From: Escherichia virus TH58
Sequence record: MT446423.1
Length of the DNA: 64,000 nt
Reading direction: 5' to 3' (one strand)
In this document: positions 37,696-51,733 of the stretch, piece by piece
Layout: the number at the start of each line of letters is the position of its first letter
Position numbering within the stretch: the first letter of the stretch is position 1
The notes under the pieces: generated by a model
What the model was told of the DNA's origin: nothing
Seen by the model: only the letters and a program-made list of their open reading frames with translations
Database searches by the model: none
Position numbers and translations under genes: made by a program

Positions 37696-37769
37696 GGCCC
37701 TGTAGCTCAATGGTTAGCAGCAGTCCCCTCATAAGGGAAAGGTTACCAGTTCGAATCTGGTCTGGGCCA
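37696..37769 (+). tRNA. tRNA with anticodon CAU (Met or Ile2)
   Basis: Acceptor GGCCCTG/CTGGGCC, T-arm ACCAG-TTCGAAT-CTGGT, anticodon loop CTCATAA; no encoded CCA; D-arm non-canonical. Confidence 0.6.
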
Positions 37770-37775
37770 TATATT

Positions 37776-37852
<77 letters not shown>

Positions 37853-47171: not shown

Positions 47172-47585
47172 ATGACTCGTATCAATTTAACACTTGTTTC
47201 TGAACTGTCCGACCAACATCTTATGGCTGAGTATCGTGAATTACCACGCGTATTTGGTGCAGTCCGTAAACATGTTCAAAACGGTAAATGTGTAAAGGAT
47301 TTTAAAATCTCCCCGACATTTATCTTAGGCACAGGTCATGTAACATTCTTTTACGACAAACTCGAATTTTTACGTTTACGTCAAATCGAGCTAATCGCTG
47401 AATGCTTGAAACGTGGTTTCAAAATCAAGGACACGACTGTCCAAGATATTTCCGACATCCCTGCCGAATTTCGTAATAATTATGTCCCGACCGAAGCGTC
47501 CATTGCGATAAGTCAAGCTCGTTTAGATGAAAAAATTGCTCAACGTCCTACTTGGTACAAATACTATGGTAAATCAATTTACTAA
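47172..47585 (+). CDS. denV: endonuclease V (pyrimidine-dimer DNA glycosylase)
   Basis: N-terminus [31 protein letters not shown] and C-terminus [14 protein letters not shown] as T4 DenV. Confidence 0.9.
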
Positions 47586-47616
47586 GGAAAAAGGTTGCGA
47601 TGGTAAAGCTTAAACA

Positions 47617-47646
47617 GTTTACGCTTAAGTATTAATATGGTATAAT
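47617..47646 (+). promoter_or_regulatory. early promoter (GTTTAC-N18-TATAAT)
   Basis: Upstream of internal-protein gene 47677. Confidence 0.5.
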
Positions 47647-47676
47647 TACTCTATCAAAACAAACAAGGAAACAAAA

Positions 47677-47979
47677 ATGAAAACATATCAAGAATTTATT
47701 ACTGAAGCGCGAGTGAGTGCAGGTAAATTAGAAGCCGCTATAAATAAAAAGGCCTATTCATTTCACGATTTGTCCGATAAAGACCGTAAGAAACTTGTAA
47801 GCCTTTATATTGACAAAGAGCGTATTCTCGCTCTTCCTGGCGCTAATGAAGGTAAACAGGCCAAGCCTTTGAATGCTGTCGAAAAGAAAATTGATAACTT
47901 TGCTTCTAAATTCGGTATGTCTATGGATGACCTTCAGCAAGCGGCTATCGAAGCAGCTAAAGTAATTAAAGGTAAATAA
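47677..47979 (+). CDS. internal protein with capsid-targeting sequence
   Basis: N-terminus MKTYQEFITEARV; 100 aa. Confidence 0.55.
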   Translation: MKTYQEFITEARVSAGKLEAAINKKAYSFHDLSDKDRKKLVSLYIDKERILALPGANEGKQAKPLNAVEKKIDNFASKFGMSMDDLQQAAIEAAKVIKGK

Positions 47980-47981
47980 CA

Positions 47982-48010
47982 GTTTACTTTCTCCTAGAAT
48001 TGTGATAGTA
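47982..48010 (+). promoter_or_regulatory. early promoter cassette (GTTTAC ... TGTGATAGTA)
   Basis: Family member upstream of the denV-remnant ORF. Confidence 0.45.
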
Positions 48011-48058
48011 TATTCATAATTACTTGGATGGGTAAAATGACTCAATGAAAAAATTTTA

Positions 48059-48241
48059 ATGAAGCCACACTGGTATAAGTATTACGGCAAAAATATTTAC
48101 ATTCAAATAACATGGGAACAACCTGGACCTCATGATTCTATGAGGGATTCCCGCCAACCTGTAATAAGGTCGAGCCCAAGTGCGGTAATGGGTAAATACA
48201 GAAATGGACAATTCATGTGCCATGGAATGGCCCAAACCTAG
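48059..48241 (+). pseudogene. ghost of a denV 3' end (PHWYKYYGKNIY) fused to a short ORF
   Basis: Codons 3-14 (48065-48100) duplicate the denV C-terminus with many synonymous changes. Confidence 0.4.
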
Positions 48242-48245
48242 AGAG
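48154..48245 (+). repeat. direct repeat copy A (about 92 bp) upstream of the internal-protein gene
   Basis: CCAACCTGTAATAAGGTCGAGC...GCGGTAATGGG...ATGTGCCATGGAATGGCCCAAACCT repeated at 48651-48745. Confidence 0.6.
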
Positions 48246-48251
48246 AACAAA

Positions 48252-48581
48252 ATGAAAACATATCAAGAGTTTATCACTGAAGTTACATTATCTGCGGAAC
48301 AGAAAGCTGCTATCGAAGAAGCTAAAAATCCCAAAGTAACATATAAAGTAAATAGTAAAGGCGTTTTTGATGACTTGGTTCAAGACCCTGAATTGAAAAA
48401 AGCTCTTTCTAAAACTAATGCGTACTTTGCTCCTAAATTTAACACAGCCGGCGTACTTATTGGATTGGATGTATTCAACTCTAAAGGTGTTCTATCTAGT
48501 GCCTTTGGTTATGCCGCTAACAAAATTACCAAAGCCGCATGGGAATCCAATACCAAACAAGCTCAAAAGCCTAGAGTATAA
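48252..48581 (+). CDS. internal protein with capsid-targeting sequence
   Basis: N-terminus MKTYQEFITEVTL; 109 aa; flanked by direct repeats. Confidence 0.55.
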   Translation: MKTYQEFITEVTLSAEQKAAIEEAKNPKVTYKVNSKGVFDDLVQDPELKKALSKTNAYFAPKFNTAGVLIGLDVFNSKGVLSSAFGYAANKITKAAWESNTKQAQKPRV

Positions 48582-48650
48582 TTCTTGCCTAATAAAGGGA
48601 AACGCAACCTCTCCTTATGAACGTCGAGTCCTCTAAGTGATGTACCTTTT

Positions 48651-48745
48651 CCAACCTGTAATAAGGTCGAGCGCAATGCGGTAATGGGTTTACATAGCGA
48701 GTCGAAGGACCTAACATGTGCCACGGAATGGCCCAAACCTTAAGA
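48651..48745 (+). repeat. direct repeat copy B (decayed, 1-nt indel versus A)
   Basis: See copy A. Confidence 0.6.
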
Positions 48746-48753
48746 GAAATAAT

Positions 48754-49293
48754 ATGAGAACATTTTTAACTGGACCTTATCTATCCCTGATGAATGCTTT
48801 TACACACCATTCTGATGCTAGAGTAGAAGAAATTTGTAAGAACGGTTATGTCCCGCCGTTTGAAGACGTACTCAAGCAGTACTGTACACTTCGTTTAGAC
48901 GGCGGCCGACAATCAGGTAAATCAATTGCTGTGACTAACTTTGCTGCTAATTGGCTGTATGACGGTGGAACAGTTATTGTTCTTTCTAATACTTCAGCTT
49001 ATTCTAAAATTTCTGCCTGCAACATTAAAAAAGAATTTTCTCGTTATTCTAGCGATGATATTCGATTCCGTTTATTTACTGATTCTGTCCGTAGTTTTAT
49101 TGGCAATGAAGGTTCTAAATTCCGTGGATTAACGCTTTCTCGTATTCTGTATATAATTGACGAGCCTATTAAAGCTCCTGATATGGATAAGATTTACAAT
49201 GTCCATATTAAATCAGTACAGCACTGCTGCAAAAGCAAATATTGCATCGGCGGTAATGCTCGTCCTCAATTTTTTGTGATTGGAATGCAATGA
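48754..49293 (+). CDS. small P-loop NTPase (T4 vs.8 position)
   Basis: Walker A GGRQSGKS and Walker B LYIIDE; about 179 aa. Confidence 0.5.
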   Translation: MRTFLTGPYLSLMNAFTHHSDARVEEICKNGYVPPFEDVLKQYCTLRLDGGRQSGKSIAVTNFAANWLYDGGTVIVLSNTSAYSKISACNIKKEFSRYSSDDIRFRLFTDSVRSFIGNEGSKFRGLTLSRILYIIDEPIKAPDMDKIYNVHIKSVQHCCKSKYCIGGNARPQFFVIGMQ

Positions 49294-49598
49294 TGACAAC
49301 TATTGAAGTTTTTGAATATTGTTATAATAGCCCAGTATGCAATAAAAGGGCCCTTGTAGAAAATTACGAGATTTACCATTTTAAACCTAAACGATATCGT
49401 TTGACTAAAGGCCCGTTCGCAGGGCAGCAGGTTCTTTGTACTGCTCCTAATGAGCGGTTGATGACTAGTATTCCGCATTTCAAAATGGAATTTATTGATG
49501 GGCCATTTAAGGGATTAATCACTCAAAGTTTAATGGCGTTTAATTCCGACCCATTTTTGATTAAAGAAAAAACTTGGATAAATTTATTTTCTAATTGA
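49290..49598 (+). CDS. hypothetical protein (vs.7 position)
   Basis: 102 aa, overlaps upstream stop. Confidence 0.4.
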   Translation: MMTTIEVFEYCYNSPVCNKRALVENYEIYHFKPKRYRLTKGPFAGQQVLCTAPNERLMTSIPHFKMEFIDGPFKGLITQSLMAFNSDPFLIKEKTWINLFSN

Positions 49599-49604
49599 GG
49601 TTAT

Positions 49605-49967
49605 ATGAAAGCATATCAAATTCTTGAAGGTGCACATAAAGGCACTATTTATTTTGAAGACGGTACTCAAGCCCGGATTATCGTCTCTAAGACTTTTAAA
49701 GAAGACGCTATTGTAGACCCGGAAATTTTCTACGGTTTGAATGCCCGTGAAATTGAAATTGAACATCAACCTAAAGTTAAAATTGAAGGTGGTCAACACC
49801 TGAACGTTAACGTTCTGCGTCGTGAAACTCTGGAAGATGCAGTTAAGCATCCAGAAAAATATCCGCAGCTGACCATCCGTGTATCCGGTTATGCGGTTCG
49901 CTTTAACTCTCTGACTCCAGAACAGCAGCGCGACGTTATCGCTCGTACCTTTACTGAGAGTCTATAG
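49605..49967 (+). CDS. autonomous glycyl radical cofactor (GrcA/YfiD-like)
   Basis: C-terminal half [61 protein letters not shown] matches the E. coli GrcA glycyl-radical motif (RVSGYAV). Confidence 0.85.
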
Positions 49968-50191
49968 TGGCTAAATTGATTATAGAAGGGTCTGAAGATG
50001 TTTTAAAATGTTTTGCCGCCTGGTTTAGTTGCTCAGGCGAGCAATCATTCACTGAAGCATTTAGAATGGGTGATATTACTGGAAACTATCCGACAACTGA
50101 TATCACTGTACGTGGATATGGTATTAATGAGCCTATCCAATTGGTCGAATATGACCTTGCCACCGATGAGGAAATTCCTTATGTCGATTGA
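49967..50191 (+). CDS. hypothetical protein (vs.5 position)
   Basis: 74-aa ORF. Confidence 0.4.
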   Translation: MAKLIIEGSEDVLKCFAAWFSCSGEQSFTEAFRMGDITGNYPTTDITVRGYGINEPIQLVEYDLATDEEIPYVD

Positions 50192-50447
50192 AGATATTAA
50201 AGGTTACAAACCGCTCACCGATGACAAAATCGGCAAAGTGAACGCTATTAAAGATGCAGAAGTCCGTCTTGGATTGATGTTTGATGCTCTGATTGAAGAA
50301 GCATATATCTTGAAAGAAAATGAATCAGAGCAACAAACCAAAGAAGATATGGATGCAGTGCAGGCTCTTAAGTATGCTAAGCAACATCTAAAAGAAGCCA
50401 GTATGTGGGCATGTCGTGCAGTATTTCGACCTGAGGAAAAATACTAA
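50184..50447 (+). CDS. small helical protein at T4 vs.4 position (candidate Acb2-type cyclic-nucleotide sponge)
   Basis: 87 aa from ATG 50184 with GAGGAA RBS; assignment by synteny only. Confidence 0.4.
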   Translation, partial: SIEDIKGYKPLTDDKIGKVNAIKDAEVRLGLMFDALIEEAYILKENESEQQTKEDMDAVQALKYAKQHLKEASMWACRAVFRPEEKY

Positions 50448-50662
50448 TGGCTTCTACTATTACTGGGTTATTGGACTTTCAAGAAAAGGTCAACAAAATT
50501 TGTAGTGAATACTTAAAGTATCTTGAAGAAGACCTTGAAGATTGTAAGGAAGAAGGCGAAGAAGACTATGCTGACCAGCGTCGTCGCCAAATCGAAGAGA
50601 TGAGGCATTTCACCGATATAGTATCTAAAGAATCTTGGGCTTTAACTCCATTTTATCAATAA
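50447..50662 (+). CDS. hypothetical acidic protein (vs.3 position)
   Basis: 71-aa ORF. Confidence 0.4.
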   Translation: MASTITGLLDFQEKVNKICSEYLKYLEEDLEDCKEEGEEDYADQRRRQIEEMRHFTDIVSKESWALTPFYQ

Positions 50663-50666
50663 AGTA

Positions 50667-50696
50667 GTTTACTTCTCCTCTAGTTGTGTTACTATA
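50667..50696 (+). promoter_or_regulatory. early promoter cassette inside a 12-bp perfect inverted repeat that sequesters the regB RBS
   Basis: GTTTAC 50667-50672, TGTTACTATA 50687-50696; CTCCTCTAGTTG (50675-50686) pairs with CAACTAGAGGAG (50704-50715). Confidence 0.55.
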
Positions 50697-50723
50697 GAAC
50701 TGTCAACTAGAGGAGAAATCAAA

Positions 50724-51182
50724 ATGACTATCAATTCAGACGTTTTTATCCGCCGTAATAAACTCCGTCGAATCTTTGAAACGGAGTTCCGCAAAATAAA
50801 TGCCGGTATAAAAGATGCTGCAAAGTCTCTTGGACTACCAGGCTTTCATATCAAGTATTCTCAACATCTCTTAGATCGTGCCATCCAGAGAGAAATAGAT
50901 GAGAACTACGTTTTTGAATTATTTCATAAAGTAAAAAATCATGTTAAAGAAGTTGCAGAATTTTTATCAATGCCGGCACGTCCGGATGTTGATGAAGATT
51001 TTGACGAAGGTGTCGAATATCGCCCAGGCCGTTTAGAAATAACTGATGGAAATCTTTGGTTAGGACTTACAGTTTGTCGCGAAAATCCGGCATTCAAAAT
51101 GAAGACTCTTCAATGCAGAATGGCTATTATTAACAGTAAACGATTACCAGGAAAAGCTTCTAAAGCAGTGATTAAAATCTAG
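50724..51182 (+). CDS. regB: RegB endoribonuclease
   Basis: 152 aa; N-terminus MTINSDVFIRRNKLRR; size and position between vs genes as T4 RegB. Confidence 0.7.
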   Translation: MTINSDVFIRRNKLRRIFETEFRKINAGIKDAAKSLGLPGFHIKYSQHLLDRAIQREIDENYVFELFHKVKNHVKEVAEFLSMPARPDVDEDFDEGVEYRPGRLEITDGNLWLGLTVCRENPAFKMKTLQCRMAIINSKRLPGKASKAVIKI

Positions 51183-51190
51183 AGGTAAAC

Positions 51191-51733
51191 ATGAGAAAAG
51201 CACTACTCGCTGGTCTATTTGCTCTTTCATTATCAGCACATAGCTCCGAGCATACTTTTAGTAATGTCCAACTCGATAACTTGAATTATGCTTATCAGTT
51301 TGGGGAACAGTTTTCTAAGGACGGAAAATTTAAAACGCATGAAAATATGCATAAGAAAGGACTTGGATACATAATGGCCGCAATACTATGGCAGGAATCA
51401 TCTGCCGGTATTAATCTTAAAGATAAGAAAGGTCACCATGCGTATGGAATGTTCCAAAATTATCTACCAACAATGAGGGCAAGAATTAACCAGCTTGGTT
51501 ATAATATGTCTGATGCCCAAATTAAGAAAATGCTATCTAAGCGGTCTAATTCAGCCAGATGGGCTTATATCGAATTTTCTTATTGGTTAAATATACATAA
51601 CGGGGATATAAGAAAAGCTATATCCTCATATAATGCGGGATGGAAGACAAGTGCTGGAAGTAAATATGCTTCTGAAGTCCTAGAAAAGGCTAATTACCTT
51701 AAATCAAATAAACTACTGGAAATAAAAGAATGA
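51191..51733 (+). CDS. secreted lytic-transglycosylase-like protein (T4 vs.1 position)
   Basis: Signal peptide MRKALLAGLFALSLSAHS; SLT motifs QESS, AYGMFQ, SSYNAGW. Confidence 0.6.
   Translation: MRKALLAGLFALSLSAHSSEHTFSNVQLDNLNYAYQFGEQFSKDGKFKTHENMHKKGLGYIMAAILWQESSAGINLKDKKGHHAYGMFQNYLPTMRARINQLGYNMSDAQIKKMLSKRSNSARWAYIEFSYWLNIHNGDIRKAISSYNAGWKTSAGSKYASEVLEKANYLKSNKLLEIKE

Follow-up and report, generated by a model that had tools for sequence, protein, structure and literature searches.

A phage-borne glycyl radical protein

Why does a T-even phage carry what appears to be a host fermentation cofactor, and from where were the two dissimilar halves of its gene obtained? The question is raised by an ORF at 49605-49967 (+) in a 64,000-nt stretch of Escherichia virus TH58 (MT446423.1), hereafter the window, from the first letter of which all coordinates are counted. 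The CDS starts with an ATG at 49605, ends with a TAG at 49965-49967, and encodes 120 amino acids. A Shine-Dalgarno sequence (GAGG, 49597-49600, +), as read from the sequence, lies 4 nt 5' of the ATG and overlaps the TGA stop of the vs.7-like ORF upstream, while the ORF downstream begins with a GTG at 49967 that overlaps the TAG stop. A promoter scan of 47500-51500 returned 13 promoter-like sites vs. 12.8 expected, and a candidate terminator at 49877-49896 was rejected as the coding sequence of the RVSGYAV motif.

An earlier reading of this DNA, made from the letters alone (the sequence-only reading), had described the C-terminal 60 residues as close to Escherichia coli GrcA, and in our alignment they are in fact identical, with residues 61-120 of the window protein matching GrcA 68-127 at every position (60/60, 100%). 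The RVSGYAV radical motif that it had pointed out occupies residues 92-98 (49878-49898, +), as placed by alignment with GrcA and the PflB G734 loop, and its context is identical to that in both proteins. The radical glycine is Gly95 (codon GGT, 49887-49889), equivalent to GrcA G102 and PflB G734. Alignment to the C-termini of GrcA and PflB thus recovers a conserved glycine-radical context: PDB 6OWR (GrcA) matches residues 21-120 (2e-42), and PflB 696-759 aligns with residues 57-120 (3e-26, ~80% identity). Gly_radical is the sole Pfam match at E<=1 (residues 60-101, 2e-18), and chance can be dismissed for all three of these matches. PHROG 1209 matches at full length (residues 1-120 of 121, 9.1e-63). 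NCBIfam TIGR04365 scores 159.1 bits over residues 18-120 and misses its 170-bit equivalog cut-off by 11 bits because of the diverged N-terminal half, so that “phage GrcA-like subfamily” is the accurate label, not strict equivalog. Homology to GrcA is nevertheless colinear and includes the N-terminal region, as seen with 6OWR (residues 21-120), TIGR04365 (18-120), and an HMM of bacterial N-terminal halves (see below).

A full-length glycyl radical enzyme (PflB/TdcE type, with a ~760-aa barrel) can be ruled out, since the ORF encodes only 120 aa and PflB is matched at 696-759 alone. The window protein is a standalone glycyl radical domain without the catalytic barrel, and the label “pyruvate formate-lyase” on some GenBank phage records is a misnomer. 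The ORF is very probably the Mosigvirus orthologue of T4 vs.6 (Y06I), a phage autonomous glycyl radical cofactor of the GrcA/YfiD type. A homologue in T4 had been anticipated by the sequence-only reading, and the 93% amino acid identity, the same neighbourhood, and the full-length PHROG match all agree with it. The closest DNA match is Escherichia phage SF, also a Mosigvirus (99.2% nt, megablast), whose RefSeq protein YP_010096332.1 is identical to the window protein; RefSeq gives the name “autonomous glycyl radical cofactor GrcA” to the protein of this near-identical phage and to that of T4. Since the characterisation of vs.6/Y06I dates from 2001 and hundreds of T-even genomes carry the annotation, the identity of the gene is already known and nothing about it is new as a gene call.

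T-even phages encode NrdD/NrdG, and the protein could accordingly be imagined as a spare part not for host PflB but for NrdD, the phage's anaerobic ribonucleotide reductase, which is likewise a glycyl radical enzyme open to cleavage by oxygen. Because NrdD also has a Gly_radical-type domain, a role in nucleotide metabolism has been guessed (PMC1524935). We consider this assignment extremely unlikely. The radical domain is identical to host GrcA at 60 of 60 residues and ~80% identical to PflB 696-759, whereas no NrdD-type model is found among the Pfam (E<=1) and NCBIfam matches of the window protein, the best of which are all PFL-clade enzymes. Furthermore, the published biochemistry of Y06I (PMC8683613) was carried out with PFL and PFL-AE, and neither nrdD nor nrdG is annotated in the two stretches of phage SF examined (record positions 9800-65800). 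A cofactor for host PflB therefore remains the preferred identity.

Two halves of different origin

The window gene is a sharp chimera, in which an old phage-type N-terminal half (N-half; codons 1-60, 49605-49784, +) is joined at codon 61 to a recent half encoding the radical domain of Escherichia grcA (C-half; codons 61-120, 49785-49964, +). When the window gene is aligned as DNA with T4 vs.6 and E. coli grcA, the identity breaks at codon 60/61. Divergence of the N-half had been noticed from the sequence alone, and it is substantial: only 84/180 nt are identical to E. coli grcA in the codon alignment (40-47% nt and ~30% aa identity), yet this half can still be recognised as GrcA-like. Against an HMM of 66 distinct bacterial GrcA N-termini it reaches 20.7 bits, with other T4-like phage N-halves (T4, Mineola, Miro, ZX13, and leB) at 16-25 bits, while the best score of shuffled phage N-termini against the same HMM is 6.1 bits among the 1,438 listed. 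The T5-like and Krischvirus N-halves reach only 7.1 and 3.1 bits respectively. The N-half also contains motifs common to GrcA, namely ARxIVxK, F/LxED, RExxhE, and (Q/K)PxV. On the other side of the junction, the C-half matches grcA at 174/180 nt vs. just 140/180 for the 3' end of pflB. Because the N-half is homologous to GrcA, the whole gene derives from a grcA; a pflB 3' end joined to new sequence is not its source.

The two halves also differ in composition and in the substitutions they carry. GC is 0.36 (GC3 0.25) in the N-half and 0.49 (GC3 0.40) in the C-half, vs. 0.38 for the window overall. The N-half has a dN/dS of ~0.13 (vs. T4 and Mineola), which indicates purifying selection; all six differences between the C-half and E. 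coli grcA are synonymous, with no nonsynonymous change. T-even phages are efficient at recombining with homologous non-phage DNA, as in plasmid-phage insertion/substitution systems, and the chimera most likely arose when a phage copy already in place recombined homologously with host DNA. The break in identity lies at the domain boundary of YfiD, where by NMR residues 1-60 are disordered and aid cPFL binding and efficient activation, and residues 61-127 form the structured radical domain (PMC8683613).

When the window and T4 are compared, no stretch of the neighbourhood is more conserved than the C-half (0.97-0.98, vs. 0.87-0.93 for the N-half and 0.5-0.9 for neighbouring genes). The dS between the two phages is 0.148 in the C-half and 0.438 in the N-half, a marginal difference (Fisher p ~0.06). 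The lower value hints that the C-half coalesced later than the rest of the gene, although on single vs. repeated conversion in T-even phages it is suggestive only. We found no description of a nucleotide-level vs.6/grcA mosaic in the literature searched, which misses most subscription journals, and we regard the chimeric, host-matched radical domain as a modest addition beyond the known gene.

Source and direction of the exchange

To place the C-half among its possible sources, the 180 nt were compared with E. coli grcA as the reference. T4 vs.6 is identical at 177/180 and the window gene at 174/180, which directly supports the host origin proposed in the sequence-only reading. For bacterial grcA, the corresponding values are 178/180 in an Escherichia sp. 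of the cryptic clade, 167/180 in Citrobacter amalonaticus, 151/180 in Salmonella, and 152-157/180 in Klebsiella and Enterobacter. The T-even C-half is therefore closer to E. coli grcA than is the grcA of Citrobacter, Salmonella, Klebsiella, or Enterobacter. In the C-half, the window gene is at a dS of 0.146 from E. coli and T4 at 0.046, vs. 0.74 to saturation in other phage lineages. Altogether, the 3' half reaches 95% identity or more to E. coli grcA in 642 phage records (114 at >=99% and 528 at 95-99%).

The direction of transfer is from host to phage, since E. coli grcA is normal among enterobacterial grcA genes and the tract has a host-like composition in an AT-rich phage. An exact donor allele for the window tract was not present among 5,426 E. 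coli genomes, the best of which is 97.2% identical, and these genomes likewise give no sign of a very recent exchange in the window phage. Given that no E. coli genome exceeds 97.2%, the private synonymous changes stem from the phage lineage or from an unsampled donor.

Exchange in other phage lineages

A second host-phage pair is provided by the Klebsiella phage Mineola (Jiaodavirus). Its N-half is phage-type (130-134/180 nt to T-even N-halves), and its C-half matches K. pneumoniae grcA at 166/180 nt, vs. 153/180 for E. coli and 151-154/180 for T-even copies. The K. pneumoniae grcA was taken from CP125156.1 (L170), a 5.37-Mb chromosome filed as a plasmid in PLSDB; the multi-megabase chromosomes among PLSDB “plasmids,” which include this record and some of E. 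coli at 4.8-4.9 Mb, are a database artefact. At the 21 C-half positions where the two bacterial genes differ, Mineola agrees with K. pneumoniae at 16 and with E. coli at 3 (binomial p 0.004), T4 with K. pneumoniae at none and with E. coli at all 21 (p 1e-6), and the window gene with K. pneumoniae at 1 and with E. coli at 20 (p 2e-5). Both amino acid differences track the host, with LLDAVEH in K. pneumoniae and the phages Mineola and Miro vs. LEDAVKH in E. coli and T-even phages. In Mineola the N-half has a GC3 of 0.23, and the C-half one of 0.60. The junction is at the same codon in both phage genera, and over the 30 nt that directly follow it Mineola is identical to K. pneumoniae, and the T-even phages to E. 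coli. The K. pneumoniae-type C-half of Mineola speaks for transfer of the radical domain from host to phage on at least two independent occasions.

Nucleotide identity of this kind might also arise by convergent codon optimisation or extreme constraint instead of recent exchange. grcA is highly expressed and codon-biased, and the C-half is the most conserved stretch among the phages. However, the shared codons include non-preferred or interchangeable ones (AAG, CAT, TAT, TTT, mixed CGT/CGC, ACT/ACC, and GTT/GTA), enterobacteria with the same protein still show 13-29 differences from E. coli in 180 nt, T5-like and Krischvirus coliphages match E. coli grcA at only 130-135/180, and Mineola sides with K. 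pneumoniae at 16/21 sites, two amino acid differences included. Convergent codon usage was rejected on the basis of these shared-codon, enterobacterial, coliphage, and Mineola counts, and the explanation as a whole is exceedingly improbable in our estimation. We therefore favor recent exchange with host DNA.

Whether exchange has occurred still more widely was examined in further lineages. A 130-aa GrcA-like variant is encoded on IMG/VR contigs of uncultured phage (~90-154 kb; L108-L113 and L119). Its N-half is more bacterial-like (…SIWLIExNKARCLVAK…), and its C-half has the Haemophilus-type NPDKYPQL and VITR, with the best nucleotide match to H. parainfluenzae grcA (145-150/180). The L108-L113 group, of ~150 kb, is a weak candidate for a third host-matched lineage. 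In Tequatrovirus and Mosigvirus the C-half is of the Escherichia version (174-178/180 nt), and the phage-type N-half is kept in all T4-like lineages examined. Universal host tracking is rejected, as Salmonella grcA has no near-identical phage copy (two records at 90-95%). Copies in Karamvirus ZX13, T5-like phages, and Krischvirus match the sampled grcA genes at no more than 139-144/180, and this together with the Salmonella result shows the exchange to be lineage-specific, not universal.

That the radical half has been overwritten from host grcA more than once at codon 61, so that phage lineages carry the version of their own host, is in our judgment an evenly balanced proposition. On the most economical reading, an ancestral T4-like phage would have taken up a whole grcA, the N-half of which then diverged under purifying selection. 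The highly conserved C-half would have stayed similar enough to recombine homologously with host DNA, and may have been replaced at least twice, from different hosts. If true, we would have here a clean case, from enterobacteria, of an auxiliary metabolic gene undergoing host-tracking gene conversion.

Gene neighbourhood and distribution

The gene order around the window gene is like that in T4 and SF, with internal-protein genes followed by vs.8- and vs.7-like ORFs, vs.6, vs.5-, vs.4-, and vs.3-like ORFs, regB, vs.1, and vs. This corresponds to the T4-type synteny denV–vs.8–vs.7–vs.6–vs.5–regB–vs.1–vs, and flanking ORFs match, among other PHROGs, those of the RegB endoribonuclease (phrog_1323) and the valyl-tRNA synthetase modifier (phrog_1256).

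Several other features of this region were recorded. An intergenic element of ~100 nt is present in two copies ~500 nt apart (48154-48247 and 48651-48748, +), which share two nearly identical cores, CCAACCTGTAATAAGGTCGAGC and CATGTGCCAYGGAATGGCCCAAACCT, and end just 5' of the ATGs at 48252 and 48751. No further copy is found in the 64-kb window (0 expected by chance), and the GC of the element is 0.42-0.475 vs. ~0.3-0.38 in its flanks. It has no Rfam match and its RNA folds are not better than those of shuffled sequences; it could act as a shared leader or as a regulatory cassette. A 34-nt direct repeat (47674-47707 and 48249-48282, +) gives two adjacent small ORFs the same N-terminus, MKTYQEFITE, which we take to resemble the capsid-targeting leader of T4 internal proteins; in phage SF, internal virion/head proteins are annotated near this repeat region. 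The vs.1-like ORF (51191-51733, +; PHROG 600) has a signal-peptide-like start, MRKALLAGLFALSLSAHS. Two adjacent tRNA genes (37696-37769 and 37776-37849, +) are the sole matches in the window at the Rfam gathering threshold and are consistent with a T-even tRNA cluster.

Among phage records, the window gene is found in 789 by megablast, and similar DNA in 1,520 by blastn. The full-length gene, with the same phage-type N-half and in synteny, is present in Tequatrovirus, Mosigvirus, Jiaodavirus, and Karamvirus (Straboviridae); the gene is also present in Slopekvirus and Pseudotevenvirus, and homologs occur in T5-like phages. In an earlier comparison, vs.6 was kept in 6/6 T4-like genomes (2006), and T4 vs.6 was among the conserved ORFs not identified as essential, being non-essential in the laboratory (PMC1524935). 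A single broken copy was encountered in 80 IMG/VR loci (L116, IMGVR_UViG_2974754850_000001, match at 1001-1359). This is a Mineola-like vs.6 copy in which the frame breaks after ~43 codons (…DAETFMATRRVK), and reflects either a frameshift in a pseudogene or an error in sequencing.

Such a distribution bears on the possibility that the gene is a neutral passenger, i.e., a recent fragment of host DNA without function for the phage. The near-identity of the 3' half to the host in nucleotides and its host-like GC would fit a passenger. We nevertheless assign this a probability close to nil, given that the full-length gene is syntenic across the four Straboviridae genera named above, with further homologs in Slopekvirus, Pseudotevenvirus, and T5-like phages, that the N-half evolves at a dN/dS of ~0.13, and that L116 is the only frameshifted copy in the 80 loci. 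A gene maintained for its function thus remains the preferred reading.

Proposed function in the infected cell

E. coli YfiD and T4 Y06I are spare parts of ~14 kDa that receive their radical from PFL-AE and bring oxygen-cleaved PFL back to activity; PMC8683613, citing Wagner et al. 2001, names them as the only two validated examples of spare parts. The restoration of oxygen-damaged PFL by GrcA, on which the sequence-only reading relied, has thus been validated biochemically for both YfiD/GrcA and the T4 protein. In the published work on Y06I or YfiD, O2 cuts radical-bearing PflB at G734, the small protein binds the cut enzyme with a contribution from its first 60 residues, and PflA installs the glycyl radical. 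The radical is transferred from GrcA G102 to PflB C419 (PMC12338860), after which catalysis resumes. With an identical radical domain and 93% identity to Y06I, the window orthologue would be expected to behave in the same way, a prediction made from sequence similarity.

We propose the following sequence of events. In infected E. coli, trace O2 would react with the Gly734 radical of PflB, and the chain would be cleaved there. The C-terminal domain of the phage protein would then dock into the vacated PflB site, with the N-half assisting, and the host activase PflA (a radical SAM enzyme) would abstract a hydrogen from Gly95. The radical would be handed to PflB Cys419, and pyruvate could again be turned into acetyl-CoA and formate. 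The resulting fermentative energy supply (acetyl-CoA and ATP) would sustain phage production in oxygen-limited or fluctuating conditions, and a phage-borne copy would free PFL repair from host gene expression, which T-even phages shut off. A benefit to the phage under micro-aerobic conditions is what we infer from this scheme, and micro-aerobic or anaerobic infection, the setting suggested in the sequence-only reading, would be a reasonable ecological context. Since the radical domain must fit both host PflB and host PflA, an exact match to the host version would probably be advantageous.

The N-half leaves room for a different action, in which the protein would serve as a decoy or modulator that competes for PflA, or fills PflB without restoring it, and thereby redirects host fermentation. 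In the window protein, the region that YfiD uses for cPFL binding and activation has diverged strongly and is phage-specific, yet it is under purifying selection, so a phage-specific twist on the interaction is conceivable. Given ~30% amino acid identity in a half with a role in cPFL binding, the affinity or target range could differ from those of YfiD. However, Y06I reconstitutes the activity of oxygen-fragmented PFL, as cited in PMC8683613, and the catalytic loop and the entire radical domain are identical to those of a functional host protein. We therefore consider a decoy very unlikely, and repair of host PflB remains the function we propose.

Implications and comparison with known systems

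The gene serves to recall that functions suited to infection under oxygen limitation are found in enteric T-even phages. As a chimera, it offers a compact and tractable case for measuring the recombination of lytic phages with host chromosomal homologs, and it could show whether the radical domain must match host PflB and PflA. Its phage-specific, conserved N-half is a natural variant of the region by which YfiD recognizes damaged PFL, and could inform that mechanism.

The closest known counterpart is T4 Vs.6 (Y06I_BPT4; NP_049730.1), which has 120 aa like the window protein and is 93% identical to it over 120/120 residues. The eight amino acid differences comprise seven in the N-half and R72H of T4, and in the C-half there are 4-5 private synonymous changes. 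T4 vs.6 shares the chimeric build, a phage-type N-half followed by an E. coli-type C-half (177/180 nt in T4), and both genes are flanked by vs.7 and vs.5 within the early region denV–regB–vs–tk. The window phage is a Mosigvirus, whereas the T4 group belongs to Tequatrovirus.

E. coli GrcA/YfiD (PDB 6OWR; TIGR04365; IPR011140) is likewise a small standalone glycyl radical protein and is colinear with the window protein, which is 7 residues shorter. In contrast to the window gene, which is part of a phage early-gene cluster, E. coli grcA is at its own locus next to ung. The C-terminal domain of PflB (PDB 1H16 and 2PFL; 696-759) contains the same fold element and RVSGYAV with G734. Unlike PflB, the window protein lacks the catalytic barrel and Cys418/Cys419, and is therefore no enzyme by itself.

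With regard to evolution, the nearest parallel is psbA of cyanophages, in which intragenic recombination between host and phage was reportedly described by Zeidner and colleagues in 2005 and by Sullivan and colleagues in 2006. The likeness is one of evolutionary pattern only, i.e., an auxiliary metabolic gene of T4-like phages in which segments are exchanged with the host homolog, since gene, host, and function are all different. In contrast to cyanophage psbA, the exchanged tract in vs.6 is one defined half of the gene, with its junction at the same codon in two phage genera.
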